From assembly GCA_965223705.1 (NCBI GenBank), contig OZ245015.1:992001-1056000 (forward strand): a stretch of DNA of 64,000 nt, read 5' to 3'. Made by a program: the position numbers and the translations under genes. Positions 9,972-63,588 of the stretch are shown one piece after another; positions within the stretch are counted from its first letter, which is position 1; every line of letters starts with the position of its first letter. Source of the stretch: Myxococcota bacterium (GTDB lineage Bacteria > Myxococcota_A > UBA9160 > UBA6930). The notes under the pieces are model-generated. The model was not told the origin of the DNA and did not search any database. It saw only the letters and a program-made list of their open reading frames with translations.

Positions 9972-11294
9972 GCGGGCTCCGGCGCGCTAGTCTCGGGTGC
10001 TCGCTGCTCGAAGGAGCACCTCGTCGAAAGCCGTCACCACGCGTTACCGCCCTTGGCGGGGCTATTTCCCAGCACCTATTACGGTTGGGTCATCGCCGGC
10101 GCTACGGGCGTCATCATGTTCGCCACGGTCGGCGTCGGCTTCTACGCGATGGCGGTCCTCATCGACGGCCTACCCGAGGCCAAAGGCTTTACGCGCGCCC
10201 AAGTGGCCGGCCCCACGAGCTTCTACTTCGTTCTGCAGGGGCTTCTCGGACCCTTGGTGGGTCGCGTCGTCGATCGTCACGGTTCCCGCGGCGTCATCAT
10301 TTGCGGGACCGTGCTCCTCTCGGCGGGCCTGCTGCTCCTTGGCGGCGTGGACGAGGCCTGGCAGCTCTGGCCGACCTACTGCGCGATGTCGCTCGGTTTC
10401 TCGCTGTGCGCCGCGATTCCGACGAACGCTCTCTTGGCGCGTTGGTTCATCGGATTGCGCGCCCGTGCGCTGGCATTTGCGCACTCCGGCGTCTCCCTGG
10501 GCGGGATCTTGGTGACGCCCATCGCGACGTGGGTGCTCCACCAGCACGGCGTGGGAGCGGCGACTTCACTTCTCTCGGGCATTGCCCTGGGCGTGGCGGT
10601 TCCCGCCGCTTGGTTTGCGCTGTCGCAGGACCCGCGTGATCACGGGCTCGAGCCCGACGGCGGCGCCACCCGCCCACGCGAAAGCGAGCTCCTGTCCGAG
10701 TCCTACCAACGCGCCGCGTGGAGCACACGCGAAGCACTAGGCACCCACGCGTTCTGGATCGTCGCACTCGCTTTCTCCCTGGTCCTCTTCGGCCAGCAAG
10801 GCCTGTTGATCCACGAAGTCGCTCTCGTTCACGAACGCACCGGAAGCTCCCAGGCCGGTGCGTTTGCGGTTTCGCTGACGGCGCTGGGAAGCGTCACCGG
10901 TCGACTCATCGTCGGGATGTTCGCGGATCGCTTCCCGAAGCAGCGCGTCGCGTTCGGCGTGATGATGTTTCAGGCGCTCGCCCTCTGGATCTTCGCGCAA
11001 GCGACGGGTTTGCCGGGGCTCTACGCGTCCGCCCTGATGTTCGGCATCACCATCGGCAACGTCTTCATGCTGCAGTCGCTGATCGTCGGCGAGTTCTACG
11101 GCATGACCTCATTCGGCGCCGTCTTCGGCGCGCTGATCTTCGTGACGCAAATCGCCGGCGGCCTCGGCCCCTGGGGCTTGGCCCAAATGAACGAACTCCT
11201 GGGCGGCTACGGCGAAACCCTGCAGACCCTCGCGCTAGTCGCCGCTGCGGGCGCCTGCGTGATCGCCTTTGCGACCCCCCCGTCTCGCGAGTAG
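9957..11294 (+). CDS. MFS transporter (OFA/MCT-like); start uncertain
   Basis: YYGWVI start, motif A GRVVDRHGSR, RWFIGLRARA, GMFADRF and about 12 hydrophobic segments. Confidence 0.92.
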   Translation: MLSHQAGSGALVSGARCSKEHLVESRHHALPPLAGLFPSTYYGWVIAGATGVIMFATVGVGFYAMAVLIDGLPEAKGFTRAQVAGPTSFYFVLQGLLGPLVGRVVDRHGSRGVIICGTVLLSAGLLLLGGVDEAWQLWPTYCAMSLGFSLCAAIPTNALLARWFIGLRARALAFAHSGVSLGGILVTPIATWVLHQHGVGAATSLLSGIALGVAVPAAWFALSQDPRDHGLEPDGGATRPRESELLSESYQRAAWSTREALGTHAFWIVALAFSLVLFGQQGLLIHEVALVHERTGSSQAGAFAVSLTALGSVTGRLIVGMFADRFPKQRVAFGVMMFQALALWIFAQATGLPGLYASALMFGITIGNVFMLQSLIVGEFYGMTSFGAVFGALIFVTQIAGGLGPWGLAQMNELLGGYGETLQTLALVAAAGACVIAFATPPSRE

Positions 11295-11319
11295 AGCGCG
11301 CGTCAGCTGAGCGTTGCGA

Positions 11320-11438
11320 GGCCGTGGGGGTGGGGGGTACCGCGCGCAGTTCCGCAGCGCCGCAACCAAGCGCGAATGATCTCGTCACGCCCCGCGGCGC
11401 GAGGATGTTTGAGCACGGTACCCCCCACCGCCACGGCC
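11320..11438. repeat. 119-bp element with 26-bp terminal inverted repeats (REP/REPIN- or MITE-like) between convergent genes
   Basis: Left arm ggccgtgggggtggggggtaccgcgc (11320-11345); right arm gcacggtaccccccaccgccacggcc (11413-11438); 2 mismatches. Confidence 0.75.
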
Positions 11439-11448
11439 CGACCCCGGT

Positions 11449-12255
11449 CTACGTCATGACGGCGAGCTGCCGACACTCCGCGAGGAGCACCCCGTCCTCG
11501 CTCCAAACCTCCCCGTCCTCGACGAGGCAACCGTCGCGCACCGTCTGCGTGACGAGTCGGATGAGGACGAACGCGTCGGCGCCGAAGGGAAGGCTGCGCG
11601 GATCACATCGGAAGTGGATCGTCAGGTCGACCGTCGAAACGCCGGCGACGGGCCCGTCCCGGTGGGCCCAGGCCAGGAGAGCGGGGGGCCACACATCGCA
11701 GTACGCGGCGAGAAGCGGAGCGTCGATGACGCCCGGCGGGTCGACGAGCCGAATCCAACCGCCGGCCTCCGCGTGCGGCAAGCCTTCCCACGGTTCGCCG
11801 CCAAAGACGGGTCGGCGCTCGAAGTGCGCGCGCAGTGGCGGATGCTCGGGGCGTACCGAAATGGTACGCACGTCGCTTGAAGGCGGCGCCTGAGGCGCTT
11901 CGCGGTGCGCGAGCTCGAGCCCGCCTCGCGGCGTCCCGCACGCGAGAACCCCCAGCACACACAGTTTCTCGCCCTGCATCATTCGCATCGTCGCGGTCGA
12001 GAAACGCCGGCCGGTTCGTTCGATCGCGACGTGAATCGCCACTTTGGCCGCCGTCGGCGGACGCAAGTAGTGCAGTGTGAGAGAACGCGGCGTCCGCTCG
12101 TCGTCACCGAGCTCTGCGAGAGCGGCGCGCAAGGTAATCGCCGCGAGGAAGCCGCCATTCGGTCCCGCATCGATCCACCAGGAGCGATGGATGAACGCTT
12201 CGTAGACACCATCGCCGATCGGAGTGACGGCCGTGTCGCGTTCGAAGCGGGTCAT
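11449..12255 (-). CDS. Acyl-CoA thioesterase (TesB-like double hotdog family)
   Basis: MTRFERDTAV..., WWIDAGPNGGFLAA, SLTLHYLRP, YCDVWPP, STVDLTIHF and EDGEVWSEDGVLLAECRQ; ATGA overlap with the upstream stop. Confidence 0.88.
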   Translation of the reverse strand: MTRFERDTAVTPIGDGVYEAFIHRSWWIDAGPNGGFLAAITLRAALAELGDDERTPRSLTLHYLRPPTAAKVAIHVAIERTGRRFSTATMRMMQGEKLCVLGVLACGTPRGGLELAHREAPQAPPSSDVRTISVRPEHPPLRAHFERRPVFGGEPWEGLPHAEAGGWIRLVDPPGVIDAPLLAAYCDVWPPALLAWAHRDGPVAGVSTVDLTIHFRCDPRSLPFGADAFVLIRLVTQTVRDGCLVEDGEVWSEDGVLLAECRQLAVMT

Positions 12256-12995
12256 CGAGGGTTCCTTCTTTGATCGATCTGCCTCATTCGCTCTCCTACC
12301 ACCATGGCCATGGCGGCTTGCAAGTTGTAGGACGGAATGAATCCGTGCATCGGGAGACGCAACACGCGGTCTGCCCGGGCGAGGTGATCTTCCGGGACGC
12401 CGTGCTTTTCGCCGCCGACGATCAGTAGCACGGGCCCCGAGAGATCGATCTCCCAGGGCGCGACGTCTCCGGAATCTTCTACGGCAAAGATCTGCCGGCC
12501 GGCGCGGCGCGCAGCATCGATGACGCCGAGGCCATCGTCCCAGAAGACGGGCATGAAGCGGTCGGCGCGCATCGAGGCGCGCAACGCTTCGCGTTTTCCT
12601 TCGTGGGCCATCCGGTTGTCTACGAAACAGGCGTCGGCGCCCGAGACTTCCGCACAGCGGATCCCGAAACCCGCGTTTCCAGGGTAGGCGACGTTCACGA
12701 GGAGCCACGCGGCACCGCCGCGGGCGAGGGCCGCTTCGCGGTCGACATCGGCGTCGGCACCCACCAGGCCCAGCACTTCGGCCGGCGGATCGGATTTCGA
12801 CAGGCGCCACAGGGAGGCTTCACTCGTCTCGCGAACCGCGATCGATTCCGCGCGGGCCCGCGCGAGGAGGGCCGGCACGCGTGGGTCGCGGGGCTCGCGG
12901 TGGGTCAACAACAAGCGGATCGGCTCACCGCGATCGAGCGCGGCCGAGATCGCCTCGGGGCCCGCCAGTTGGCGGCGCGCGGGAGCGTCACCCAT
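12252..12995 (-). CDS. TrmH/SpoU (SPOUT) RNA 2'-O-methyltransferase with an N-terminal substrate-binding domain
   Basis: SPOUT motifs YPGNAGFGIRCA, IVGGEKHGV and LPMHGFIPSYNLQAA. Confidence 0.9.
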   Translation of the reverse strand: MGDAPARRQLAGPEAISAALDRGEPIRLLLTHREPRDPRVPALLARARAESIAVRETSEASLWRLSKSDPPAEVLGLVGADADVDREAALARGGAAWLLVNVAYPGNAGFGIRCAEVSGADACFVDNRMAHEGKREALRASMRADRFMPVFWDDGLGVIDAARRAGRQIFAVEDSGDVAPWEIDLSGPVLLIVGGEKHGVPEDHLARADRVLRLPMHGFIPSYNLQAAMAMVVGERMRQIDQRRNPR

Positions 12996-13752
12996 CGCGA
13001 CGAAAGACCAAGTATTCGTTCAAGTCGCCCGACGCACCGTCGGCGGAGAAGCGCAGGGCGAGCGGCCAAGGCAGGGCGCCGATCCAGTGCTCGCGCTCCG
13101 CTTTCGAAACTTGATGGCAGTAGCGCACCTGATCCTCTCCCCAGCGCAACAAGTGATCCCCATCCTCCACGCCGTGCTCGTCGATCGCGGGAAACCCGTA
13201 ACGCGGAAGCTCGTGCCACGGTACTCGCCGGTCGCGGAAGCGCGCTCGCTCGCCGAAATCCCACACCGAAACCGCGAGTTGTCCGCCCGGCGCGAGAAGC
13301 TCGCCGGATCGCTCGAGCAAAGCGAGGCGCCGGTCGCGGCCCGGGAGGTGATGCAACAAACCGAAGACGACGACGAGATCGAAGCGCTCGCCGTGCAGAG
13401 CCGCGAGACCGTCGGACGCGAGATCGAGGCAGACGACGCTCGCTTCGGCGCCGACCTGGCGCGCCGCGTCCCGAGCTTCGCGGAGAAGTGGGGCGCTCGC
13501 GTCGACACCGACGTAGGTCAGCGGCCGCAAGCCGGCGTCGGCTGCGGCGCGCACCCATCGGCCGTTGCCGCAGCCCAAGTCGAGGACCCGCAAGCCCCTG
13601 CGCGGGAGGGTCGCTAGGATGCGTTCCCAGCCGGGCCATCCGCGGCGACGCGTGCGGCTAAACGACGCCGCTTGGTCGCGGTAGAACGCGCGATTGATGG
13701 CGACGAGCGCCCGGGCGGTGGGCGAATCGGACGAGTCGGACAGATCGGACAT
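12988..13752 (-). CDS. Class I SAM-dependent methyltransferase, Trm9/ALKBH8-like (candidate tRNA cm5U34 methyltransferase)
   Basis: FYRDQAASFSRTRRRGWP, VLDLGCGNGRW and FDLVVVFGLLHHLPGRDRRLALL...LAPGGQLAVSVW match the Trm9 pattern Y..IA.HFS.TR..PWP / D.GCGNGKY / HH.ST..RR...L..GG..LI..W. Confidence 0.8.
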   Translation of the reverse strand: MSDLSDSSDSPTARALVAINRAFYRDQAASFSRTRRRGWPGWERILATLPRRGLRVLDLGCGNGRWVRAAADAGLRPLTYVGVDASAPLLREARDAARQVGAEASVVCLDLASDGLAALHGERFDLVVVFGLLHHLPGRDRRLALLERSGELLAPGGQLAVSVWDFGERARFRDRRVPWHELPRYGFPAIDEHGVEDGDHLLRWGEDQVRYCHQVSKAEREHWIGALPWPLALRFSADGASGDLNEYLVFRRDG

Positions 13753-15454
13753 GCAAACGGCCTGTGCAGGAAACCCCGAAGGGGATCTCGACGCGATCAT
13801 AGACGAGATCCTGGCGAGCCCGTCCTGGAGCGATGCCTCCCTCGACCGCATCCAACGACGTCACCCGAAAGATGGCCGCGGCTTCTACAACAAGCGCGAA
13901 ATCTTGGCCCGCTTTCGCACGCGGGGTTCGGACGCGGATGAGGCACGGTTCACCGAGCGACTCCGCACGTGTCCGACGCGCTCGGTCTCGGGCGTCCTGC
14001 CCGTCACCGTCCTCACGAAACCGTTTCCCTGCCCCGGCCGTTGCGTCTTCTGCCCGAGCGACGTGCGGATGCCGAAAAGCTATGTGTCGAACGAACCCGG
14101 CTGCCAACGGGCGGAATCGAACGCGTTCGATCCCTATCTGCAAGCGCTGAGTCGACTCACCGCCTACCGCGACATGGGTCATCCGACCGACAAGGTCGAG
14201 CTCATCGTGCTAGGCGGCACCTGGTCGCACTACCCGAAGTCCTATCGGCGCTGGTTCGTCGGCCGCTTGTTCGATGCGCTGAACGATTTCGGCGACGGCG
14301 CACGCCGAAGCGATTGCGGCGGTCCGCGCAGGCCCGAGGTCGCCGCGGAACCGAGCGCCACCGATGTTCGCGGTCGATACAATCGCTACGTCGCCGCCTC
14401 TCTCTACGAATCGGACGATTTCTCGCCGACCGCGTTCGTAGAAACGACGCATCGCAACGAATCGGCCGCGACGCGGTGTGTCGGTTTGTCGATCGAAACG
14501 CGCCCCGATTGCATCGACCGGGATGAGCTCCGCACGCTCCGAGAGCTCGGCGTGACGAAGGTCCAGCTGGGCATTCAGAGCACGTCCGACGACGTGCTGC
14601 GCAAAAACCAGCGAGGACACGATGTCGCCGCCACGCGCCACGCCATGTGTCTCTTGCGTTCGGCGGGTTTCAAGCTGCACGGGCACTGGATGGCGAACCT
14701 GCTGGGAAGCGATCCCGAAGCGGACGTGGCCGACTTCGAGAAGCTCTTTTTCGACCCGGCGCTTCGCCCGGACGAGCTCAAGGTCTATCCCTGCAGCTTG
14801 CTCGACACCGCCGAGTTGGTTGCGCACCACCGTCGGGGCGATTGGCATCCCTACGACCACGAGACCTTGACGGGTGTTCTCGTGCGCTGCCTCGCCGCCG
14901 TTCCTCGCAGCTGTCGGGTCACGCGGATGATTCGCGATATTCCGTCGACCGACATCTTGGTCGGTAACCGCCGGACGAACCTACGAGAAGACGTCGAGAA
15001 GCGTGCGCGTCGCGAGCGGGTGCCGCTTCGGGAAATCCGCGGACGCGAGATCCGCGGCGACGCGATCGATGCGCGTGCGCTCACCCTCAAGGAGACGCGC
15101 TACACGGCCGGGCGCGGCGACGAGATCTTTCTCGAATGGACGGACGAAGGCGATCGGATCGCCGGGTTTCTCCGCCTTCACTGCCCGCGTGAGGAAGCCC
15201 CTCTCCCCGAGCTCGTCGGTGAGGCGATCATCCGGGAGGTCCACGTCTACGGACAGACGGCGCGCCTCGGCTCCCGAGAAAAACGAGAAGCCCAACACGG
15301 CGGGTTGGGCGCTGCGCTCATCGAACGAGCCGTATCGCTCGCGCGGTCCGCGGGTTACCGGTCGCTGGCGGTGATCTCGGCGGTCGGTACGCGGGGCTAC
15401 TACCGGCGATTGGGATTTGTCGACGGGGAGCTCTACCAACATCGCGCGCTCTAG
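13751..15454 (+). CDS. elp3: Elongator protein 3 (radical SAM + KAT/GNAT) tRNA U34 carboxymethyltransferase
   Basis: RSVSGVLPVTVLTKPFPCPGRCVFCP (Fe-S Cys motif), PKSY..EP, GHPTDKVELIVLGGTW, ETRPD, QLGIQS, PDELKVYP, RMIRDIP, IIREVHVYG, QHGGLG and ISAVGTRGYYRRLGF. Confidence 0.95.
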   Translation: MQTACAGNPEGDLDAIIDEILASPSWSDASLDRIQRRHPKDGRGFYNKREILARFRTRGSDADEARFTERLRTCPTRSVSGVLPVTVLTKPFPCPGRCVFCPSDVRMPKSYVSNEPGCQRAESNAFDPYLQALSRLTAYRDMGHPTDKVELIVLGGTWSHYPKSYRRWFVGRLFDALNDFGDGARRSDCGGPRRPEVAAEPSATDVRGRYNRYVAASLYESDDFSPTAFVETTHRNESAATRCVGLSIETRPDCIDRDELRTLRELGVTKVQLGIQSTSDDVLRKNQRGHDVAATRHAMCLLRSAGFKLHGHWMANLLGSDPEADVADFEKLFFDPALRPDELKVYPCSLLDTAELVAHHRRGDWHPYDHETLTGVLVRCLAAVPRSCRVTRMIRDIPSTDILVGNRRTNLREDVEKRARRERVPLREIRGREIRGDAIDARALTLKETRYTAGRGDEIFLEWTDEGDRIAGFLRLHCPREEAPLPELVGEAIIREVHVYGQTARLGSREKREAQHGGLGAALIERAVSLARSAGYRSLAVISAVGTRGYYRRLGFVDGELYQHRAL

Positions 15455-15519
15455 AGGCCCTTTCAGATTTCCCCACACGACAGCTCAGTCGTGGTATACG
15501 CCACCCAGGAGGAAACTGT

Positions 15520-16671
15520 ATGTCTCGCCGCGCAATTCAAGCTCTGGTCCTGGCTGTGTCCTGCCTGTGGGCGACAACGGCCACCGCCCAACTCTCCGTG
15601 ATGACGCGCAATTTGTACCTCGGTGCGGATCTCACGCCAGTCTTCGCGTCGGACGCTGCGACCTTCCCGGCGGAAGCGGCCGCGGCGCTCAATCAGGTCG
15701 CTCAAAACAACTTTCCGAGACGCGCGCGGGCCCTCGCCCGGGAAGTCGCTCGCACGCGACCCCACGTGATCGGTCTCCAAGAAGCCTTCCGATTTAGCGT
15801 CGGTGGTGCGACGCTCGGCGTGCCCTTCGTCGACATGTTGGAGGTGTTCGAACAAGCACTCGCTGCGCGCGGGCTCAACTACGTGCGCGTCGCCGTCGTT
15901 CCGAACATCGATCTCAATATCCCGGCGGCGGCGGTTCCAGGGCTCGGAGGTGATCTCGGGGTACTGGACCGTGACGTCATCCTGGTGCGCGGCGATGTCG
16001 CCGGATCCGCTGAGCCTCTTCCGCCCGGCTCGGGTACGTATGATTGCATTCAGCCGGTGGGAGACGGCTGCCGTCTGACGCCCGGCGTTCCATTGCCGGC
16101 GACCCTGATCCCGTTCTCCGCCGATCCGTTCCTCGGTCGCGGCATCGTGGTGGTCGAGTTGAGCGTCGCGGGCGAACTCTACCGCGTGGCGAACACGCAC
16201 CTCGAGGTGCGGCTACCCGATCCGACCAACCCCGCGTCCGCCGGCGTCCAGAGTTTCCAGGCGCAGGCCGTGGCTATGGCAATGGGTCAGCTCGCCGGGC
16301 CGAATCACGAGACGATTCTCATCGGCGATATCAACTCAGCGCCCGATGACGCACCCATCGAAGCCACCGATCCAATGACCGGTGATCCGATACGGATCAT
16401 TCCGCCGTACCAGATCCTCGCGAGCTCCAACCTTATCGACGCCTGGACCCGGAACTTCCTGATCTTCTTCAACCCGGACGGCGCGACGTGTTGCCAGCAG
16501 CCCGACCTCGCGAACTTCCAGTCCCAGCTCGACGAGCGGATCGATCAGATCTGGGTCCACAATCGGCGGTTCGCCGCGCTGGCGATCGTCACCGGGGAGA
16601 GGCGCCTGTTCGGCGTGCCGCGCTGGTCATCGGACCACGGCGGTGTGTTCGGCCTGCTCTTCTTCCCGTAG
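15520..16671 (+). CDS. Secreted endonuclease/exonuclease/phosphatase (EEP) family protein
   Basis: Signal peptide ending ATA; VMTRNLYLGAD, IGLQE, NTHLE, IGDINS, ERIDQIW and SDHGGV; AGGAGG RBS. Confidence 0.9.
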   Translation: MSRRAIQALVLAVSCLWATTATAQLSVMTRNLYLGADLTPVFASDAATFPAEAAAALNQVAQNNFPRRARALAREVARTRPHVIGLQEAFRFSVGGATLGVPFVDMLEVFEQALAARGLNYVRVAVVPNIDLNIPAAAVPGLGGDLGVLDRDVILVRGDVAGSAEPLPPGSGTYDCIQPVGDGCRLTPGVPLPATLIPFSADPFLGRGIVVVELSVAGELYRVANTHLEVRLPDPTNPASAGVQSFQAQAVAMAMGQLAGPNHETILIGDINSAPDDAPIEATDPMTGDPIRIIPPYQILASSNLIDAWTRNFLIFFNPDGATCCQQPDLANFQSQLDERIDQIWVHNRRFAALAIVTGERRLFGVPRWSSDHGGVFGLLFFP

Positions 16672-45498: not shown

Positions 45499-46221
45499 CG
45501 GCTTCCGTATCGTCGCTATCAACAGTATTCGGAAGGCTTCTAGCCAAGGCGTCGCGTTGACCGTCCGTTCGTAGGCAGCCCCGAACAAATAGGTGAGCCC
45601 CGAGATTCGCATGTACTCCGGGCGACCTTCGATTCGTTCGATGGCATCGATTTCGAAACCTGTAGACCGCGCGAGCTTCTCGACGGCCCTCCGTGAGTTC
45701 GCGCGGTATCGCGTCGGGAAGGTGTCGGCCTCCGGACGACCCCGGAGACGGTTGAACCACTGGTGAAACGCGGTGGGGGTTGCCGAGGCAATCAACGGCA
45801 TGTAGTGCCATCGGTTGGGAGTCTTGAAGAGGAACCGGCCCCCTGGGCGCAGAACACGATGGACTTCACGAAACACCACTCCTGGCTCTTCTAGATGCTC
45901 GGCGACGTTGTCCGAAAACACCACGTCGAATGCGCCGGATTCGAAGGGGAGAGAGTCTCCCAACCCGATGTGCGCCTCATCTAGGAAGGGATTCTCAACA
46001 ACTCGGGGGTCCGGATCGATGCCTACAACCCGCGCGGCAAGGCCTCGGAAGTTCATTTCTGGGATACGCCCGATACCGGCCCCGAGGTCAAGGACCTGGG
46101 ACTCCGAGTCAACGGACTTGAGGATCCGGTCTCGGAATAGGCGGTCATCCCAACGGTCGGAGTGGTTCCCGTAAAGCCGCTGGTCGATCCAGCCGACGAG
46201 AGTTCGTGACTTGCCGTTCAC
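45490..46221 (-). CDS. Class I SAM-dependent methyltransferase (polysaccharide-cluster type)
   Basis: VLDLGAGIG, LPFESGAFDVV, EHLEEP, RVLRPGG, KTPNRWHY and DTFPTRYRAN. Confidence 0.88.
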   Translation of the reverse strand: MNGKSRTLVGWIDQRLYGNHSDRWDDRLFRDRILKSVDSESQVLDLGAGIGRIPEMNFRGLAARVVGIDPDPRVVENPFLDEAHIGLGDSLPFESGAFDVVFSDNVAEHLEEPGVVFREVHRVLRPGGRFLFKTPNRWHYMPLIASATPTAFHQWFNRLRGRPEADTFPTRYRANSRRAVEKLARSTGFEIDAIERIEGRPEYMRISGLTYLFGAAYERTVNATPWLEAFRILLIATIRKPSA

Positions 46222-46274
46222 GGCCCGGGAGCGTAACGCACGGTGCAAGCCAGGAGTCGTTAGACTCCTCCGCC

Positions 46275-47378
46275 GTGAAAGAAATTGTCCTCGTTGCGGG
46301 CGCTCGACCCAACTTCATGAAGATTGGACCGATTGCGCACGCCCTGTCGAACCACACTCGGTTGTCGGGCTATTTGGTGCACACGGGCCAGCACTACGAC
46401 ACAGCTATGTCGGATCAGTTCTTTAAAGAACTCGGGATACCGGAGCCGGACGTAAACCTCGGGGTTGGCGGTGGCACGCACGGTGCTATGACGGCGCGAG
46501 TCCTAGAGAAGATGGAAGAACTCCTCATGGAACGTCGACCCGCGGCCGTTCTCGTTGTCGGGGACGTAAATTCCACGATTGCTGCGGCTCTGGCGGCCGC
46601 AAAGCTCGGTATTCCTATCGCGCACGTCGAAGCAGGGCTTCGGTCTTTCGATCGCGAAATGCCCGAAGAAATCAACCGGGTGCTGACCGATCGCATTTCC
46701 GACTGGCTTTTCACGACAGAGCCCGAAGGTGATGCGAATCTGTTGCGCGAAGGGGTCGACCGCTCAAGGATCTTCCGTGTCGGCAACGTGATGATCGATA
46801 GCCTGCTCGGGAACCTCGAGAAAGCTAAGTCACGAAGGACACCGTCCCGATTCGGGCTACGCGAAGGAGCATACGGCCTGGTCACATTGCACAGGCCGAG
46901 CAACGTCGATGATCCGGTTCAGCTCCGCGCTCTATTCGATGTCCTCGATGAGATTCACCGGGAACTCCCGCTACTTTTCCCGATGCACCCACGTACGCGA
47001 CAAGCCGTACGTGACAAGATGGGCGGACATTCGCCCGAACTGCGCGTCGTTAATCCTCTCGGCTATCACGAATTTCTCGGCCTCATGTCGGACGCCAAGC
47101 TCGTCTTGACCGATTCCGGCGGCGTGCAAGAAGAGACCACGGCCTTGGGTGTTCCCTGTATCACGTTGCGGGAGAACACGGAGCGCCCTGTTACAGTGAC
47201 GCATGGGACGAACGTGATCGCGGGGCGAGATCCAGAAACGATTCGCATGGAGGCGCGAACGGTGCTTGACGGCGGCGGAAAGGCGGGGAGGGTTCCGGAG
47301 CTTTGGGATGGGAACGCGGCCCCTCGAATTGTTGATATTCTGGCAGCAGAGCTCGACTGCCAGCAACGGCCGTACTAA
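46275..47378 (+). CDS. wecB: UDP-N-acetylglucosamine 2-epimerase (non-hydrolysing)
   Basis: GARPNFMK, HTGQHYD, GDVNST, HVEAGLRS, MPEEINR, TDSGGVQEE and RENTERP. Confidence 0.96.
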   Translation: MKEIVLVAGARPNFMKIGPIAHALSNHTRLSGYLVHTGQHYDTAMSDQFFKELGIPEPDVNLGVGGGTHGAMTARVLEKMEELLMERRPAAVLVVGDVNSTIAAALAAAKLGIPIAHVEAGLRSFDREMPEEINRVLTDRISDWLFTTEPEGDANLLREGVDRSRIFRVGNVMIDSLLGNLEKAKSRRTPSRFGLREGAYGLVTLHRPSNVDDPVQLRALFDVLDEIHRELPLLFPMHPRTRQAVRDKMGGHSPELRVVNPLGYHEFLGLMSDAKLVLTDSGGVQEETTALGVPCITLRENTERPVTVTHGTNVIAGRDPETIRMEARTVLDGGGKAGRVPELWDGNAAPRIVDILAAELDCQQRPY

Positions 47379-48634
47379 GGGCTCCGACGGGACCAATCGC
47401 GGCTGTGCGTCCGGTCTTTGCGGATACTGAGAACGGCTTCGAGCATTTGCCGAGCGAGGTCACGCCTTCGGAAACGCGTCGTCACGGCTCGATAGCCGGA
47501 TTCGCCCAAGTCGCATCTTAAAGACGCGTCATCGCGAAGAGTTCGGAGAGCAGAGACAAGTCCCTCCGCATCCCCTGGCTGAAAAGCTATTCCACAACGA
47601 GCCTCGTCTACCACGATCCGCTTGCTTTCCCCTCGCACTCCGATGACGATTGGTTTCTTGAGTGCCATCGCTTCGAAGATCTTTGAGGGTATGACTGTCT
47701 CGAACAATGGGTCATCTTTCAGGAGGACCATTGAAACATCGCACGCATTCAATACTTGCAGTGCCTCGGTCCGCGTACGACCGTCGAGCAACGAGACGCT
47801 ACGGAGCTTCAGCCGGTCGACCTCGCTCCGTAGGGCATCCTTATCAGCGCCTTCACCCATCACGAGAAAACGAATCTGAGGGTCTGTCTCAGTCAAGATC
47901 GCGGCTGCCCTCAGGATCGTTTCGAGACCGTGCGCAAGACCGAGCGTGCCAATGTAGGCACAGACGAACTCATCTTCGGACAGCCCGAGGCATCTCCGCA
48001 CAGAGGCTGGGGCGGCTATTTTGAGATGGTCGGGGTCAATTCCGTTGGTGACCACGCATATCCGGCTTTCCGCGGTACCGAGCCGGCGCAGGTGGGCTGC
48101 GAAGGAGTCCGTTACGGGCACCACGAGATCCGCTCTTCGATACAAGAACCTCGCGAGAGCCTCAAAGGGGCGAAGCCACTTCAAATCGAGAGCGCCCACC
48201 GCGGCTATAGACTCAGGCCACAGATCCCGTACTTCAAACACGAAAGGCACTCGCCGGAGCTTCGCGACGCCGAATCCGGCTAGGGCCGTGAAGAATTGTG
48301 GAGACGTAGCAATCACGACGTCTGGTTTTGGCAGGAACAACGACCGGAGAGCGCCGTTGATCGCAAAGCTGACGAAATCAAGCGTCCTTCGAAACATCCC
48401 TTGGTTCGGCGCTATATAGCTCCATACACGGGTTGTGCGGATTCCACCTTCTTCTTCAGTGCTCAATCGGTTGCGGTAGCCCTCAAACAATTTTCCCTTC
48501 GGAAAGTTTGGCGCACACGTAACAACATCAATAGTGTGACCGAGCCTTGCCCACTCCCGAACGTGCTCGCTCGTTCGGATGGCAGGGGCGTTCGTCTCCG
48601 GCGGGTAGTTGTCTGAGAGGAAAAGTATTCGCAT
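47375..48634 (-). CDS. Glycosyltransferase family 4 (WbuB-like)
   Basis: NYPPETNAPA, CAPNFPKG, ATSPQFF, FEVRDLWPES and IPSKIFEAMA. Confidence 0.93.
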   Translation of the reverse strand: MRILFLSDNYPPETNAPAIRTSEHVREWARLGHTIDVVTCAPNFPKGKLFEGYRNRLSTEEEGGIRTTRVWSYIAPNQGMFRRTLDFVSFAINGALRSLFLPKPDVVIATSPQFFTALAGFGVAKLRRVPFVFEVRDLWPESIAAVGALDLKWLRPFEALARFLYRRADLVVPVTDSFAAHLRRLGTAESRICVVTNGIDPDHLKIAAPASVRRCLGLSEDEFVCAYIGTLGLAHGLETILRAAAILTETDPQIRFLVMGEGADKDALRSEVDRLKLRSVSLLDGRTRTEALQVLNACDVSMVLLKDDPLFETVIPSKIFEAMALKKPIVIGVRGESKRIVVDEARCGIAFQPGDAEGLVSALRTLRDDASLRCDLGESGYRAVTTRFRRRDLARQMLEAVLSIRKDRTHSRDWSRRSP

Positions 48635-48700
48635 CAGAGGTGACGCCTACGCGAGGCGATCTGGACCATCGTTCTGTTGCGGGGGTAACAATGAGAGTTT

Positions 48701-48808
48701 GCCGCCCGCATGCATACCCGGCTTCGTACCCCCAAGGCTTAACCCACTTCGAGTTCCGTAATCGGTTGGATGCCCGATCCGCTGGACTCAGTCCCCTCCG
48801 GGGGCGGC
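48701..48808. ncRNA. Candidate structured RNA of unknown family in a divergent intergenic region
   Basis: Closing stem gccgccc (48701-48707) / gggcggc (48802-48808), inner ccgg/ccgg, and internal hairpins atcgg..ccgat, ggac-tca-gtcc and act-tcg-agt. Confidence 0.3.
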
Positions 48809-48991
48809 TGCGCCCATGATCCTTCTCTACTGTTTAGTCAGAAGATGGCAACCCCCCAAAGTTATTTCTTGGCCTTTTGATTTGAGAGAACCGTTTCGGA
48901 TGAGTTCGTCGGAGAGCGCGGGGCTTGAACGACGAACTCGCGCTACGTTCGGCGCGGCCCGGTCTCGGTCGCCGATACGCAAGGAGGTTTG

Positions 48992-49879
48992 ATGGCAAAG
49001 CTCAACTCGATGGGAAAGCTGGGAGTTTGGACATGGTTTGACCACCTCGCGATGTCCGAAGCGGCGGAGCTCGTCGAGAGAATAGAAAACTGGGGATACT
49101 CCGCCCTCTGGATCCCAGAGGCCGTTGGTAAGGAACCGTTTTGCCAAATCGGCTACTTCGCGGCGAAGACAACAAAGCTGATCTTTGCGACGGGCATCGC
49201 GAACATCTACGCCCGGGACCCGATGAACATGAGGTCCATCCAAAAAACCCTATCCGGAGCCGCTCCTGGTCGCTTCGTCCTCGGGCTCGGAGTGTCACAT
49301 GGCCACCTCGTAAAAGGGCAGCGAGGTCACGAATACAGCAACAAACCGGTCAGCATGATGCGCGACTACCTGGAGAGAATGGAAAAATCCCTGTACATGG
49401 GTTTCGAGCCGGAAGAAGACGCTCCCATCGTCCTCGCGGCGCTGCGCAAGAACATGCTCAAGCTGTCGGCTGCGCAAACGCGTGGAGCGCACCCGTATCT
49501 CGTTCCGCCCGAGCACACCGCAAAGGCTCGGGAGATCTTGGGCAAGGACGCTTGGCTTTGCCCCGAACAAATGGTTCTCTGCGAGAGCGACGCCACGAAG
49601 GCGCGAGACATTTGTCGCGCGAACCTCAAAATCTACTTGGGGTTGCCTAACTACCAGAACAATCTGATCGATTTGGGCTTTTCCGAAGATGATTTCAAAA
49701 GCGGCGGTAGCGACCGCCTCGTGGATGCGATCGTTGCCTGGGGAGACGAGGAAGCGATTCAGGACCGGATTCAGGCGCACTGGGACGCGGGAGCCGACCA
49801 CGTTTGTATTCAGGCCTTCAGGCCCGATGGCAAGCCGGGTCCCGATGAGCGGCTCTTGGAGACTCTGGCCCCGGCCTAG
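48992..49879 (+). CDS. Luciferase-like monooxygenase (LLM) class oxidoreductase, probable F420-dependent type
   Basis: AGGAGG RBS; GYSALWIPEA, ATGIANIYARDP, GRFVLGLGVSH, GAHPYLVPPEHT and AGADHVCIQ. Confidence 0.88.
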   Translation: MAKLNSMGKLGVWTWFDHLAMSEAAELVERIENWGYSALWIPEAVGKEPFCQIGYFAAKTTKLIFATGIANIYARDPMNMRSIQKTLSGAAPGRFVLGLGVSHGHLVKGQRGHEYSNKPVSMMRDYLERMEKSLYMGFEPEEDAPIVLAALRKNMLKLSAAQTRGAHPYLVPPEHTAKAREILGKDAWLCPEQMVLCESDATKARDICRANLKIYLGLPNYQNNLIDLGFSEDDFKSGGSDRLVDAIVAWGDEEAIQDRIQAHWDAGADHVCIQAFRPDGKPGPDERLLETLAPA

Positions 49880-51417
49880 TGGCCAAAAGGACTCTGTCTC
49901 GCCTTCGCGCCTTTGCTGAAAAGGGCCGAGGCTCAGGGCTCGGAGCAAACGCAATTGCCAATCTGCTCGGAACGGGCGGATTTTTCCTGGCGGTCGCAGT
50001 TGCCACGCCATTCGCCATCTCTGCGCTGGGTCAGACTCTTTGGGGCGTTTGGCAAGTTGCGGGCGCAGTCGCAGCGTACGCGACCCTTCTTAACCTCGGT
50101 CTGAACTCGGCAATCTCGTATGAAGTTTCTAGTACGCTTTCGCGAGAAGACGAGCTGGGTCTGGCGCAGACCATCGTCTCGGCACAGGTGTACCTACTCG
50201 TTGTTGGGTGCTTGCTAGCGGCGGCTGTCCTGCTGATCGGGCGCCCGCTAACGAATCACCTGGTACCAGAGAGGCTTCGAGAAAGTGCCTACGGTGTCCT
50301 CGCGGTGACCGTCGGATTGACCGGCCTCACGCTCAATCTGAGGATGCTTCCGTCGGTTCTCTCGGGCCTGCAGCGATACGACGCGCTGGCATGGGCGAGA
50401 ATTATCGCCGCCGCTTTTCTCGTGGTCCTTGTTTGGCAAGGGTTCGAACATGGTATGGGCATTATCGGGTTCGCCGTCGTGATGACCCTAGCGCCCGTCA
50501 TTCCAGGCTTTGTGTCTCTCTGGATGTGCCAGAGGCTACTCGGAAACTTGCGATGGTTGTGGAGTCTTGAGTTCTTCGATGGTTCCCGGCTCAGGCGGAT
50601 GGTCGCGTATAGCATCAACACGCTGATTTACACAGTCGGAACCGTTTTCCTGTATCAGACGATGAAGCTTGTTGCGGCTGCTCGCGGCGGTGCAATCGAC
50701 GCGGGACACATAGGGCTCGTGGTCAGTCTGGCTCAAGTACTCAATGTTGGCTTCCTCCCCCTCGCAGGCGTAATTCATACACGCATCGCGGATCTTCAAG
50801 GGCGAGGCGAGTACGCCGAAGTTCGTGAGACCTTTCGTAACGCATCTTCGCTGTATTTTGTGGTGGCGGTTGCTGGAATTTTGTTTGTGGGCATTGAAAC
50901 GCGAACAATCCTCAGCGCTTGGCTCGGGACCGCGCTCGACGCGAGATCGCTCGACCTGCTCGCCGATACGACACGATGGATGCTCCCTGGACAAGCCGCG
51001 TACGTTCTAACGCTGCCGAGCTATTACGGCCTCCTCGGACTGGGACGGCACCGCTTTTTCGCTGCCACGATGATCGCGGCAGCGGCAGTTTATGTCGCTC
51101 TCGCGATGGACGCCGGGTTCGAGTTCTCGGTGGGGGCATTGGCTCTCCGATTCTCGTTTGCTGTTGTGCCTCTTCTCCTCGTCGCGGGAGTATTTGCCTC
51201 GGTGCGCCATCTCCACGTTGGCCCAACAGCCCTCGCGACTGACGCGATTGCTCGTCCAGTGGCCGTCAGCCTGCCGGCCGTTGCCCTGGTTCTCGCGCGA
51301 CCGACGTCGATCTCCCCGGCATTGGACCTCTTGCTAGCAGTGTCCTTTTTCGTCTTAGGCTTGGCACCCGGCTTGTTCTGGACGTACCGAAAGTCTGGAA
51401 ACGTTCGGTTGCGCTAA
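49879..51417 (+). CDS. wzx: Wzx-type oligosaccharide flippase
   Basis: Many TM segments; TPFAISALG...GVW, LNLGLNSA and VLSGLQRYD; polysaccharide context. Confidence 0.8.
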   Translation: MAKRTLSRLRAFAEKGRGSGLGANAIANLLGTGGFFLAVAVATPFAISALGQTLWGVWQVAGAVAAYATLLNLGLNSAISYEVSSTLSREDELGLAQTIVSAQVYLLVVGCLLAAAVLLIGRPLTNHLVPERLRESAYGVLAVTVGLTGLTLNLRMLPSVLSGLQRYDALAWARIIAAAFLVVLVWQGFEHGMGIIGFAVVMTLAPVIPGFVSLWMCQRLLGNLRWLWSLEFFDGSRLRRMVAYSINTLIYTVGTVFLYQTMKLVAAARGGAIDAGHIGLVVSLAQVLNVGFLPLAGVIHTRIADLQGRGEYAEVRETFRNASSLYFVVAVAGILFVGIETRTILSAWLGTALDARSLDLLADTTRWMLPGQAAYVLTLPSYYGLLGLGRHRFFAATMIAAAAVYVALAMDAGFEFSVGALALRFSFAVVPLLLVAGVFASVRHLHVGPTALATDAIARPVAVSLPAVALVLARPTSISPALDLLLAVSFFVLGLAPGLFWTYRKSGNVRLR

Positions 51418-52556
51418 GTTGCTTGCGATTCCAAGTAAACAGCCGACAGGAATCGTAGTGTTTCATCCGCGCACCGCTCCCACGAAAATGTTTCTGCTCG
51501 CGTCCACGCGGACGCAGCGCACCGTTCTCGTAGCTCCCGGCACACGACGAGCCGCTCGATTGCTGCGACGACAGAGTCCACATTTTCCGGGTCAAAGTAG
51601 ACCCCAGCATCCCCCAGGACCTCGGGCATAGGACCGCGATTCGAACAAGCGATCGGGTAGCCCTGTGCCATACCTTCGAGCAAGATGTTGGGCATGTTCT
51701 CGCAACTGGATGCGAACACAAAGATGTCGGAACGATCGACGACTTCGTGTAGCCGATCGAAGGGTAAGGGCCCGTCGTACGAGGCGAATTCCCCGTTCGG
51801 GTCAACGCGAGCCAGGGTAGCGCGCAGACGGGCAAGAGCAGCAGGATACGCAGGACCAACGAATTCGATAGCTACCGGATACCCCCTGAGTCTGAGTTCG
51901 CTAACGGCCTCAGCAACGATCCATTGGTGCTTGTAGACGTCGACTATTGAAACATAGACCAGTCGCATCGGGTTCTCGCGAGAGAACTCCACAAGGTCTC
52001 GTTGGGGTCGCGGCTCTATTCGAAACCGATCCTCAACCCCATGGGGTATCACGACAGTTCGCTTGGGCGAGCCGACGACGCCAGTCACAACCTCGCGAGA
52101 ATATTGCGTGAGAAAGACAACTCCGTCGGCGGAGCGAAGGGTTCGGCTCTGCCCAAAGCGCAGAAGAAAGACGCGTAGGCCCATCAAGGAGATCCCGTAG
52201 CGTCGCATCTCCTTCCACTCGAAGGGAAGGAGGTTTCTCGACATTGTTACGAGCGGGAAGACTTGTGTTGGCGAATTTCCGCCGGGCGCGAAGAGCAAGT
52301 CACATTGTTGGCTTGCCAACTTTGGAAGGCGTCTCCATTGCCACAAAAGGCGGAACGGCAAAGGCCGGTCTAGTTCGGGTTCGTGGACCTTTTGTAGCCA
52401 AGGGTGCGCCGGAAGCCGGTTGAGAGTCTCTTTGCCAGCCCAAACAACGACTTCCGAAATATTGTAGTTGTCTGGCTGGGCAACTCTGAGAAGGTTCGTA
52501 AGGTGTGTTAGACCACCTCCCGCCCTAAGGTTCGAAGCATCGATTCCAAGAATCAA
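51414..52556 (-). CDS. Glycosyltransferase family 4
   Basis: GIDASNLRAGGGLTHL, IPHGV, YKHQ, FASSCENMPNILLEGMA and YFDP. Confidence 0.92.
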   Translation of the reverse strand: MILGIDASNLRAGGGLTHLTNLLRVAQPDNYNISEVVVWAGKETLNRLPAHPWLQKVHEPELDRPLPFRLLWQWRRLPKLASQQCDLLFAPGGNSPTQVFPLVTMSRNLLPFEWKEMRRYGISLMGLRVFLLRFGQSRTLRSADGVVFLTQYSREVVTGVVGSPKRTVVIPHGVEDRFRIEPRPQRDLVEFSRENPMRLVYVSIVDVYKHQWIVAEAVSELRLRGYPVAIEFVGPAYPAALARLRATLARVDPNGEFASYDGPLPFDRLHEVVDRSDIFVFASSCENMPNILLEGMAQGYPIACSNRGPMPEVLGDAGVYFDPENVDSVVAAIERLVVCRELRERCAASAWTRAETFSWERCADETLRFLSAVYLESQAT

Positions 52557-53653
52557 AGATGCGATCCAGATACGGCAAGCTCGTACACCCGCAGAAAGCT
52601 CTCCGCACTAGCCTCGATCGACCAGCGTCGGGCTTTGCACGCGGCCGCCTCGGTTCGCCGAAGGTTGTCCTGCGGATTTCGCAGTACTTGCGAAATGGCG
52701 TCGGCTGCCGGGGCGGAGCTACCAGTTTCCACGAAAAACGCCTCTTCTTCGGAGAACAGTTCCCGATGCGCGGGGATGTCGGAAAGGACGAGCGGACACT
52801 CGGAGGCAGCGGCCTCCATCACCGTGTTCGGCATCCCTTCGTAGTGGCTAAGCGAAACAAAGGCCCGCGCCCGTTTGAGCAACGAGATGCCCTGGTCGGT
52901 GTAATCACAAAACCGAATCCGATCTTCGAGTCTTCGCTCTCTTACAAGAGCCATCAGTCGGCCGGTCTCGGATCCCGATCCGCAAAACAACCCGATTGCG
53001 CCGTGACTCGCAACATTCTTTCCCATAGCGTCAAGTACAAGGGCGGGGTTCTTAAACGGTTCGATGCGGCCGATAAACAAGATCAGGGGCCCATCTCTAT
53101 CGAATCCAAACTCCGAGAGTGATGCCGCCGAAGCTCGATCAATCTCGTCGAAGCAAAGGCCATTGCGAATGGTCGACCGACCTACTCGCGGGGGAAGCTG
53201 GGTCTTCCAGTAGGCGTTTCCAGCCTCTGAGTTTGAGACGACGAAAGCCGCCCTTGTGGCGAGACAAGCCCGAACCCGTAGTTTCGCCGTTTGAGCGATG
53301 GAACCTGGGGCCGTTCGCTCCGTGAGAATCCATGGGATCTTGCGGCGCCATGCAGCTAGACCTCCGAGGATATCCATCATTGGAAGCCAGGTCTGAACGA
53401 TATCAGGGTGGAGTTCACGCAGGAGCGAGCAGATGGCGACGGGAATTCTTGCGTCGTAGCTGGACTTCGAAGCGATACAGTGGACCTCAGCTTTGGCGGC
53501 CACCGCGCGGTCCAAATTTGGGCCTCCCTTCAGCACAGCAATATGAACTTCGACCCCGAGTTGGTGAAACGCACCGCAGAGGTTCGCGAGCTGACGTTCT
53601 GCACCGCCAGGCCCGAGACTGGGAATGAGATGAAGGACCTTCAGGGCATGCAT
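52553..53653 (-). CDS. Glycosyltransferase family 4
   Basis: LIPSLGPGGAERQL, SNSEAG, IGRIEPFKN, SHYEGMPNTVMEA and SDIPAH. Confidence 0.92.
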   Translation of the reverse strand: MHALKVLHLIPSLGPGGAERQLANLCGAFHQLGVEVHIAVLKGGPNLDRAVAAKAEVHCIASKSSYDARIPVAICSLLRELHPDIVQTWLPMMDILGGLAAWRRKIPWILTERTAPGSIAQTAKLRVRACLATRAAFVVSNSEAGNAYWKTQLPPRVGRSTIRNGLCFDEIDRASAASLSEFGFDRDGPLILFIGRIEPFKNPALVLDAMGKNVASHGAIGLFCGSGSETGRLMALVRERRLEDRIRFCDYTDQGISLLKRARAFVSLSHYEGMPNTVMEAAASECPLVLSDIPAHRELFSEEEAFFVETGSSAPAADAISQVLRNPQDNLRRTEAAACKARRWSIEASAESFLRVYELAVSGSHL

Positions 53654-54882
53654 TTTTTACGGAGGTCAGGATATCCGCCGAGCTCTGCGGGATTGTCTCT
53701 CACTGTGGCTCTCTTGCCGGTCTGTCCGGTCACCTGGAGCAATAGGCTCTGGTCGAGAGAGTCGCGGCACGGTTTCGTGGCACCGGCTTCTCGGACCGTC
53801 TCCTGAAGAACATCGCGGTCGGTCTCAAGATACAGATCGACCCCCACCGGCCGTTTCATGAGAAATCCAGCATCTCTAGTCACCCTGTCGATTCCGCCTT
53901 TCGTTCGGTCCGAGACGAACTCATGTTGTTGGTGGTTTCCGGAGTAAAACCGGTTGGTGCTTAGAAACAGACCTACTGTGCCGACACCAATCCTCTGCAC
54001 CGGCGGTGGGATCCTGTTGCTTCCTGAGAGGTATACATTGCGCACAAAATCTGCATAGACGTGCCAACCCTGGGAAAATGAGCCAACTATGGAGCCGATC
54101 TGGTAGTTGTGAATAACGTTTTCTTCGACAGTGAAAATTGCAACTCCGCGCTCCGGAGAGCCATGATCGGAACCCGGGGTGAGTTGCGGATTCCTGGAAT
54201 ACTGGTGGGCGAACACGTTCCTCACCCAACTCCCGAGCGATACGTCGCCAGCGACGAGTGTGCCGTAGGTGTGGTTTCGCGACTGGGGAAGAGTCTGGGC
54301 GATGATCGAATATTGAATCGTGAAGTTGCGCAGAGAGCGGCCCTCGTAGGCAACAGCCGAGATGCATTCATCCGTGCCCCACTGACACGAGACATGGTCG
54401 ATCAGGTAGTTTGAACCATCCTCCAGGGTCAGCCCATCGTCATAGGCCTTGCGGTTTCCGTTCCGGAACCGCATATGAGTGACGATGGTGTTGCCACCGC
54501 GAAGGCTCACCTGCGCGTCGGCAATTTGCACGCCCGCGTCCGGCGCATCAGAACCGTCAATCGTGAGATTGCCGGCGAAGATAGTCAGTGGACGCCTCAG
54601 CCGGATCGTTCCAGAAACGCGAAAACGGACGATGCGCCCCGGTTGCGCCACGGCTGCCCGTAAAGGGCAGTCACCATCGATATCCGATGAGCAGGCGCCT
54701 GTTGAGCTGTCCTCCAGCGTGTCAACCCAAACGGTTTCTCCACCCGTCCCTCCCGTCGTAGCCATGCCGAACCCGTGGGCGGTGATCGCGACGGCGCTAG
54801 CGGCCAGGGTGGAGACAAAGAGCGAAATCGCTAGCGTCCACGGGCATCCACGAAGCAGCGAGACACGGGTGATTCGGACCAC
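53641..54882 (-). CDS. Secreted pectate-lyase-like (PL1-type beta-helix) protein; start approximate
   Basis: Signal-like LAISLFVSTLAASAVA; AHGFG..TTGG.GG, LRAAV, VRFRVSGTI, NLTIDG, IDHVSCQWGTDE and SRNP. Confidence 0.82.
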   Translation of the reverse strand: MVRITRVSLLRGCPWTLAISLFVSTLAASAVAITAHGFGMATTGGTGGETVWVDTLEDSSTGACSSDIDGDCPLRAAVAQPGRIVRFRVSGTIRLRRPLTIFAGNLTIDGSDAPDAGVQIADAQVSLRGGNTIVTHMRFRNGNRKAYDDGLTLEDGSNYLIDHVSCQWGTDECISAVAYEGRSLRNFTIQYSIIAQTLPQSRNHTYGTLVAGDVSLGSWVRNVFAHQYSRNPQLTPGSDHGSPERGVAIFTVEENVIHNYQIGSIVGSFSQGWHVYADFVRNVYLSGSNRIPPPVQRIGVGTVGLFLSTNRFYSGNHQQHEFVSDRTKGGIDRVTRDAGFLMKRPVGVDLYLETDRDVLQETVREAGATKPCRDSLDQSLLLQVTGQTGKRATVRDNPAELGGYPDLRKKCMP

Positions 54883-60498: not shown

Positions 60499-60499
60499 C

Positions 60500-62037: not shown

Positions 62038-62202
62038 GATTGATCCCTACGCTTACTAGCGGCGGACATCGGCTGTTCCCGAAGCATGAATTAACCCTAC
62101 AGCGGGGGCCTCTGCACGCGAGGGAAAGCGGATTCTCAAAATAGGAAAACCTTTTCCACGAAAAGCTCAAAATCTGCCCGCGGTCTGCCGATCGGCCCAT
62201 TA

Positions 62203-63564: not shown

Positions 63565-63588
63565 CCCCGCGGGGGTCCGGAGGGGGAC

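Follow-up and report, generated by a model that had tools for sequence, protein, structure and literature searches.

The window analysed here is a 64,000-nt stretch of contig OZ245015.1 from a Myxococcota genome, with positions counted from its first letter. It carries a gene for Elp3 lying head to head with a gene for a class I S-adenosylmethionine (SAM) methyltransferase (MTase). The features of the locus are collected in Table 1. An earlier sequence-only reading had described this arrangement and quoted several motifs in support of it; both open reading frames (ORFs) and all of the quoted motifs are present, those of the MTase being FYRDQAASFSRTRRRGWP, DLGCGNGRW and LLHHLPGRDRR...LAPGG...SVW. 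The pair quite probably represents a bacterial pathway for modification of the wobble uridine of tRNA (U34), in which Elp3 would make 5-carboxymethyluridine (cm5U) and the MTase, a putative relative of Trm9, would esterify it to 5-methoxycarbonylmethyluridine (mcm5U).

Table 1. Features of the Elp3–MTase locus, with one unlinked candidate gene of the same genome
Feature	Position	Strand	Basis
Elp3, 567 aa	13751..15454	+	TIGR01211 score and PDB match to 5L7J
Trm9-like class I SAM methyltransferase (clade A MTase), 254 aa	12988..13752	-	family profile and kept Trm9 residues
Overlapping start codons CATG, Elp3/MTase	13750..13753	.	direct sequence reading
SpoU-family 2'-O-methyltransferase, RlmB/TsnR-type substrate-binding domain	12252..12995	-	Pfam PF00588 and PF08032
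Acyl-CoA thioesterase, double hot-dog	11449..12255	-	Pfam PF13622 and PF20789
Candidate Trm112/YcaR-like gene, 82 aa	G000:C1:854954-855202 (L193:2955-3203), outside the window	-	tblastn, PDB, Pfam

Enzymes of the Elp3 family use SAM and acetyl-CoA to place a carboxymethyl group on C5 of U34. The window protein scores 424 bits on TIGR01211 over its whole length (curated cut-off 350), and its best solved relative is the Elp3 of Dehalococcoides mccartyi (5L7J, E 1.2e-95). It is composed of an N-terminal extension of ~75 aa, a radical SAM domain and a KAT domain, with the CPGRCVFC motif at residue 94 of 567. Residues K148, K308, E496, H498 and Y550 align with K77, K193, E386, H388 and Y441 of the D. 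mccartyi enzyme, whose acetyl-CoA-site residues are named in the available text of PMC6367351. By alignment the acetyl-CoA site is intact, and by these matches the protein is a true member of the family; it is predicted to make cm5U34 on tRNA. The cysteines of the CxCxxC zinc linker are absent at the aligned positions of the window Elp3, and a CxCxxCxE motif occurs in 34 of 79 long Elp3 ORFs (some loci counted twice). Two irregular gene copies were seen elsewhere: an Elp3 reported in two pieces (G013:C117:3685-5262) and an MTase match with one internal TGA (G024:C28:23882-24637).

The distribution of the two genes was followed within the window's class, for which 61 genomes were available. Of these, 34 have Elp3, and a full-length MTase match (E <1e-67) is found in exactly the same 34. 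Among the 27 genomes that lack Elp3 there is no full-length MTase, with partial matches (~1e-16 to 1e-18) in three. The genes are adjacent and divergent in 32 of the 34 genomes, and the remaining two have Elp3 at the end of a contig. A wider set was taken as the best 80 of at least 506 MTase relatives in species-representative genomes. These are labelled as Myxococcota, Acidobacteriota, Chloroflexota, Patescibacteria, Spirochaetota, Planctomycetota, Verrucomicrobiota and others, although binning errors may account for the phylum labels of some short contigs. At 54 of the 80 loci Elp3 is part of the locus, divergently at 53, and 23 of the remaining 26 genomes carry it at another place, giving 77 of 80 in total. 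The pairing of Elp3 with the MTase is far beyond chance, and the co-occurrence that the sequence-only reading had offered as a check is borne out in both sets.

Sampling by phylum gives a similar picture. In Acidobacteriota (the phylum of locus L071, 151 genomes), Elp3 occurs in four genomes and has a divergent MTase neighbour in all four. In Chloroflexota (the phylum of locus L015, 101 genomes), Elp3 occurs in 22, of which 13 carry an MTase of the window's own clade (clade A). The other nine have a short, Dehalococcoides-type Elp3 together with a second Trm9-like clade (clade B), which is beside the short Elp3 and divergent in eight and on a separate contig in the ninth. With both clades counted, a Trm9-like gene is present in 22 of 22 Elp3 genomes of this phylum. 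An apparent absence of Trm9 from those nine genomes was rejected once clade B was recognized, the clade having been overlooked by A1, the MTase family profile built from an alignment of 121 relatives. As A1 misses clade B, Elp3-negative genomes were checked for clade A only, and it is found in none of the 58 Elp3-negative Chloroflexota genomes tested (of 79). In the window's own phylum outside the class there are three Elp3 genomes, with the MTase nearby in one. The Elp3–MTase pair is real and widespread in bacteria.

The relationship of the MTase to Trm9 is carried by profile comparisons and by individual residues. For the comparison of METHYLTRANSFERASE with Trm9, Pfam and NCBIfam return generic class I matches only, all of the NCBIfam ones being under cut-off. 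When the A1 profile is compared with the PDB, Trm9 of Yarrowia lipolytica (5CM2_Z) ranks first at 1.3e-14, with the runner-up at 2.3e-11. A scan of viral contigs gave 44 loci, mostly canonical Trm9s, one of which matches 5CM2 over its length (2.5e-26). A profile of 17 giant-virus Trm9s, searched against the ORFs of the window genome, places the window MTase first at 1.8e-14 (next 2.6e-6), and the viral profile and A1 align over their full lengths (hhalign 99.5%, E 1e-22). The model of the MTase has the class I fold (pLDDT, the predicted local distance difference score, 94), and the SAM-binding motif I is present. Automatic labels in IMG name TRM9 for 8 of 120 relatives among the matches listed, and the nearest named relatives are labelled Myxococcota, Deltaproteobacteria or Thermoanaerobaculia. 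Two viral contigs with giant-virus bin labels (L127 and L133) carry Elp3 immediately upstream of a canonical Trm9, with both genes in the same orientation; many further viral contigs have a Trm9 without Elp3 within the stretch examined.

According to the available text of PMC4678810, yeast Trm9 is disabled by the loss of R29, D72, H116, W145, W168, R241, Y243 or N271. The corresponding residues of the window MTase are R35, D84, H135, W164, W204, R210, C212 and N245, where the positions of the first four come straight from the 5CM2 alignment, with the numbering offset counted by hand, and those of the last four come indirectly via viral Trm9s. In 351 aligned rows, which include duplicates, R29, D72, H116, W145, W168, R241 and N271 are kept in 351, 347, 339, 349, 301, 351 and 341 rows, respectively. 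The position of Y243 is mostly Tyr in clade B and in the viral sequences, and a yeast Y243A mutant retains ~10% activity (PMC4678810, available text). Of the positions that are dispensable in yeast, H24, K31 and D270 are variable here, and H115 and R122 are kept. The Trm9-like character proposed by the sequence-only reading is upheld by the first rank of Trm9 with the A1 profile and by seven of the eight residues.

A number of results weigh against a Trm9-type pathway and have to be set beside this evidence. With regard to distribution, three of the 80 MTase genomes have no Elp3 match, and two genomes of 100% and 97% completeness, G409 (L224) and G427 (L232), have Elp3 with no clade A MTase found by profile A1, clade B not having been searched genome-wide. 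It is possible that these two are Elp3-only lineages, also without mnmG. The genomes are kin, partly incomplete and perhaps shared between samples, for which reason the counts are given without a P-value. With regard to the protein, the position of Y243 is Cys in 328 of 351 clade A rows and Tyr in none, an insertion of ~20 residues specific to the clade follows W164, and the indirect mapping of W168, R241, Y243 and N271 belongs on the same side. A search of the PDB with the single MTase sequence places 5CM2_Z third (6.4e-7) below two unrelated enzymes, although its alignment is the longest among the top matches. Profile A3, built on clade B, ranks the window MTase only fifth in the genome. Trm9 comes tenth in a Foldseek search with the MTase model and fortieth in a wide fold search (Z 15.3, root-mean-square deviation 2.8, 170 aligned); these searches do not discriminate, because class I folds tie and the solved Trm9 chain is truncated at its N-terminus.

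The phylogenies are likewise divided. In a quick tree of 64 rows the union of the bacterial clades with viral Trm9s is not resolved. A careful tree of 38 rows, made from the same set by removing 26 (11 long outgroups and 15 for thinning of the ingroup), unites the window clade and clade B with the viral Trm9s, to the exclusion of nine other methyltransferases, with support of 97/96. In both trees viral Trm9s stand in for eukaryotic ones, with zero eukaryotic or archaeal sequences. The clustering with unrelated small-molecule methyltransferases that the sequence-only reading had named as telling against it is not what the 38-row tree gives; of the structural and phylogenetic checks which it suggested, the tree of 38 rows is favourable, while the 64-row tree and the fold ranks do not decide. 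Because the Y243 position fails (Tyr to Cys), the MTase is filed as a Trm9-like variant. From its sequence, it is predicted to be a cm5U34 carboxyl methyltransferase.

In bacteria, C5 of U34 is also the target of MnmE/MnmG (xm5U34), with MnmA acting for the 2-thio group; the enzymes and chemistry of MnmE/MnmG are unrelated to those of Elp3 and Trm9. The window genome is in two contigs and 95.2% complete, and neither mnmE nor mnmG was found over cut-off in it, the only strong GidA-like match being TrmFO. It has mnmA and U34 tRNAs for Lys, Glu, Gln, Arg, Gly and others. Since mnmE was searched in the window genome only, mnmG stands for the MnmE/MnmG pathway elsewhere. It was found in none of the 61 class genomes, none of the 50 MTase genomes tested of the wider 80 and none of five Dehalococcoides-type genomes. 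Among the 63 of 151 Acidobacteriota genomes tested, mnmG is present in 0 of 4 Elp3 genomes versus 50 of 59 others (49 of 58 when the unpublished genome G148 is left out). In the window's phylum outside the class, the figures are 0 of 3 versus 46 of 63.

The sequence-only reading had supposed that the pair replaces or supplements MnmE/MnmG. Supplementation was never seen, as mnmG is in none of the Elp3 genomes tested. Replacement agrees with the missing mnmE and mnmG but is too strong a term, as mnmG is also missing from the 27 class genomes without the pair (for example family f4, with Elp3 in 0 of 5). Because these 27 genomes carry neither route, the pair is optional in an MnmEG-less background and not a one-for-one swap. 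One further observation concerns the tRNAs of the window genome. It uses tRNAs with GCG, UCG and CCG anticodons for the Arg CGN codons; an ACG (inosine) tRNA was not found and tRNA-Sec is present. A link between the pair and this tRNA-Arg set was considered and rejected, the set being present also in two genomes without the pair.

The MnmA enzyme thiolates C2 of U34 in Lys, Glu and Gln tRNAs. The proposed pathway would begin with a stand-alone Elp3 that transfers a carboxymethyl group to C5 of U34 at the expense of SAM and acetyl-CoA, to form cm5U. The Trm9-like MTase would then move a methyl group from SAM onto the carboxylate of cm5U to give mcm5U. On the yeast model, R35, H135 and R210 may hold the carboxylate and W164 and N245 the base. 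On Lys, Glu and Gln tRNAs, addition of the 2-thio group by MnmA would produce 5-methoxycarbonylmethyl-2-thiouridine (mcm5s2U). This would provide a C5 modification to lineages without MnmE/MnmG. We infer the use of cm5U-tRNA by the MTase, the choice of tRNAs that are modified and any activation by a Trm112-like protein.

It is unlikely, though conceivable, that a Trm9-derived MTase acts with Elp3 on U34 and the product is another cm5U derivative, such as 5-carbamoylmethyluridine (ncm5U) or a form 2'-O-methylated via the SpoU protein. Either a changed specificity, linked to the insertion or to the Cys at the Tyr243 position, or a later enzymatic step could bring this about. The replacement of Y243 throughout clade A and the clade-specific insertion are in keeping with such a product, as is the overlap of the SpoU gene with the MTase stop codon and its nearness in 8 of 20 class loci. 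In Haloferax volcanii without Trm9, cm5U is converted onward and does not accumulate (PMC6144793, available text). However, the proposed carboxylate and base residues R29, H116, W145, R241 and N271 are kept, yeast Y243A is still ~10% active, and SpoU, whose domains are arranged as in rRNA-type enzymes, adjoins the MTase at just one of the 80 wider loci.

It is very improbable that the MTase is tied to Elp3 and acts on something other than tRNA, such as a carboxylate of Elp3 or of another protein, or a by-product of the radical reaction. Linkage by itself names no substrate, many non-tRNA enzymes rank above Trm9 in the fold searches, and the Arg/His carboxylate dyad of Trm9 is common to protein carboxyl methyltransferases (PMC4678810, available text). 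Beyond this dyad, however, the Trm9-specific base-contacting residues W145, W168 and N271 are kept, two separate Trm9-like clades each adjoin Elp3, and the viral contigs L127 and L133 pair Elp3 with a canonical Trm9. The generic Pfam and NCBIfam matches, with those of NCBIfam all below cut-off, and the two unrelated enzymes at the top of the single-sequence PDB search could also be read as signs of an unrelated small-molecule or CmoM-like enzyme hitchhiking beside Elp3, a barely credible notion that is largely refuted by the Trm9 signature and the co-occurrence, with joint presence or absence in 61 of 61 class genomes and persistence when unlinked (23 of 26), by a CmoM score of 27 against a cut-off of 366 and by the absence of cmoB from the five genomes searched.

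The Elp3–Trm9 reading extends to a lineage with a crystallised Elp3. Clade B loci (L087 and L089-L095) have the MTase head to head with the short Elp3. The clade B profile ranks 5CM2 first (1e-20), aligning via VPW and RYYHLY motifs, and the clade groups with viral Trm9s and not with clade A. At L091 the Elp3 is almost the same protein as 5L7J (3.8e-296), and its MTase neighbour falls in a D. mccartyi protein cluster whose database label is generic methyltransferase only (e.g., WP_010936386.1). The window Elp3 is of the same family as that of D. mccartyi (5L7J, 5L7L, 6IA6), with the acetyl-CoA site kept and 187 of 450 aligned residues identical to the close relative at L091, and D. mccartyi Elp3 likewise has a divergent Trm9-like neighbour. 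In contrast to the D. mccartyi protein, the window Elp3 has a long N-terminal extension and no zinc linker, and its partner belongs to clade A whereas the Dehalococcoides partner belongs to clade B.

In eukaryotes Trm9 works with Trm112, and an activator of this type had been put forward as a check by the sequence-only reading. A candidate, the unlinked 82-aa gene of Table 1, was found by a relaxed tblastn search with the Trm112 of two relatives, so that an initial view of the genome as lacking Trm112, which came from a Pfam scan only, was rejected. The gene scores 18 bits on PF03966 (Trm112p), where the cut-off is 22, and two of four close relatives scanned exceed it. The PF03966 model misses the gene because a central insertion splits the family match. 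This calls for caution over claims of "no Trm112" that rest on PF03966 alone. In the PDB, the gene matches 2K5R at 2.7e-8, 2JNY at 2.5e-5 and 2KPI at 0.2, the last being named as a bacterial Trm112 in the available text of PMC5372719. Within the order, 37 of 38 genomes have it, and as a query it finds no match in 23 genomes of the other order. As it occurs with or without the pair, its distribution is not tied to the pair.

A model of the MTase in complex with the Trm112-like protein scores 0.81 against 0.00 for the best control, no control being another class I methyltransferase; 116 of 157 solved complexes attain the mark used, as do 2 of 215 mismatched pairs. Between runs at least 92% of the contacts coincide, and the partner has a pLDDT of at least 91. 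The modelled contacts join MTase residues 79-123, centred on 105-110, with partner residues 68-76, and they fall within 1-2 residues of the beta3 zipper described for Trm9–Trm112. The model supports binding of the Trm112-like protein to the MTase, but its pass may be memory because a like complex (5CM2) is already solved. Two of the six hydrophobic Trm112-contact positions (V59 and F78 of Y. lipolytica) are mostly polar in clade A, unlike eukaryotic Trm9, which speaks against a strict need for Trm112. Dependence of the MTase on Trm112 is judged somewhat less probable than its contrary. The sequence-only reading had proposed a two-enzyme mcm5U module; the route may instead be one of three proteins, with an unlinked Trm112-like gene. 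The fullest version, a complete Elp3 to Trm9–Trm112 route in bacteria in which a mobile head-to-head pair with at least two Trm9 clades, spread over many MnmEG-less phyla, would draw on the host's unlinked Trm112-like activator, is put forward tentatively as a possibility.

The layout of the pair is compact. Within the CATG, the likely starts are the ATG at 13751 for Elp3 and, on the minus strand, the ATG at 13752 for the MTase. The same in-frame ATG overlap is found in all six loci of the same family (L171-L176), in L179 and in L078. As there is zero intergenic DNA, each promoter would sit within the opposite gene. A TANNNT hexamer lies 10 nt before the MTase ATG in the six same-family loci and L179; in the window it is found only further upstream. 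Among 76 wider loci, there are 20 cases of TANNNT at a distance of 5-10 nt ahead of the MTase start, versus ~8 expected from positions further upstream, and a Shine–Dalgarno-like word precedes the MTase start in only 10. Many of the wider loci have an Elp3–MTase gap of <70 nt. This layout suggests a joint, near-leaderless divergent transcription of the two genes. A sigma-70 scan of positions 11200-15700 gave zero full promoters. A public contig covers 11397-14075, including the junction, with zero differences; it is non-independent support for the junction, since its run may be the window's own source.

Neither of the flanking genes, which fall inside the stretch 11449-15454 covered by the sequence-only reading and went unmentioned in it, is part of the core. 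The SpoU gene overlaps the MTase stop by 8 nt, is below every NCBIfam cut-off and accompanies the MTase at 8 of the 20 class loci but at only one of the 80 wider ones; it is a neighbour of limited lineage. It is one of only two SpoU-family genes detected in the genome. The thioesterase, likewise a local neighbour, is found at 7 of the 20 class loci and at 2 of the 80 wider ones. A core role for SpoU as a U34 2'-O-methylase was rejected on the single wider locus in which it lies beside the MTase. A 503-aa MTase–SpoU fusion (P0303) is 1 of 15 cluster members and is probably a frameshift artefact, as the remaining members are separate proteins. The idea that a further conserved gene belongs to the locus, lying between the two or flanking them, was also rejected. 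A first clustering of neighbours was confounded by antisense ORFs, and the intervening ORFs of different loci, which we take by eye to encode a short-chain dehydrogenase, kinases and others, are not related to one another. No fusion of Elp3 or Trm112 to the MTase was seen among eight long matches, which is weak evidence as only 551-2000 aa were searched. Apart from the pair, GC content falls from ~67% to ~58% in the stretch 46000-64000 of the window, where the ORFs, read by eye, presumably encode an exosortase-like protein, a flippase, a sugar epimerase and glycosyltransferases; this region is probably a polysaccharide island.

The known systems closest to the window MTase are eukaryotic Trm9–Trm112 (Saccharomyces cerevisiae; Y. 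lipolytica, 5CM2) and the methyltransferase domain of ALKBH8. With Trm9 it shares the class I fold, the best profile match and seven of eight essential residues, and in the model its contact with Trm112 likewise involves strand beta3 and the loop after it. The window MTase differs in being bacterial, in the linkage of its gene to Elp3, in the Cys for Tyr243 and in the insertion of ~20 residues. The closest parallel in organization is the minimal pathway of archaea, likened here by description, with no archaeal sequence compared directly. This comprises a one-subunit Elp3, Trm9 and an unlinked small Trm112, and is represented by H. volcanii (HVO_1032) and by clustered genes in Sulfolobus solfataricus. 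The available text of PMC6144793 reports mcm5U measured in H. volcanii tRNA. The bacterial system would differ in that 2-thiolation would come from MnmA and not an archaeal enzyme, and in its conserved head-to-head layout.

In the available text of a 2020 review (PMC7694415), bacteria are assigned only 5-carboxymethylaminomethyluridine (cmnm5U), 5-methylaminomethyluridine (mnm5U) and 5-aminomethyluridine (nm5U) in this modification group. That of a 2017 review (PMC5372719) states that relatives of the Trm112-dependent methyltransferases are undetected in bacterial genomes and that bacterial Trm112 is wholly uncharacterised. Bacterial Elp3 is discussed without a bacterial Trm9 in the parts available of PMC6367351 and PMC13315578, and those of 10.64898/2026.05.18.725915 hold nothing relevant to the bacterial pair. 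A literature search of titles and abstract starts, with supplements and most subscription papers outside its reach, found no paper on bacterial Trm9 or bacterial mcm5U. The pair is very probably a bacterial mcm5U pathway, a known chemistry in a domain of life where it is not described. Its novelty is limited by the chemistry being known and by some relatives already carrying an automatic TRM9 label in IMG.

If the proposed pathway is true, the end product of bacterial Elp3, the way in which some bacteria without MnmE/MnmG modify U34 and the role of a bacterial Trm112 would all become testable. The presence of a pair beside the crystallised D. mccartyi Elp3 makes this testable in a cultured organism. 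A route of two or three genes would also be a compact tool for producing mcm5U-bearing tRNA in Escherichia coli. Should the route consist of three proteins, bacterial Trm112 would gain its first function, and the final product of bacterial Elp3 would be identified.

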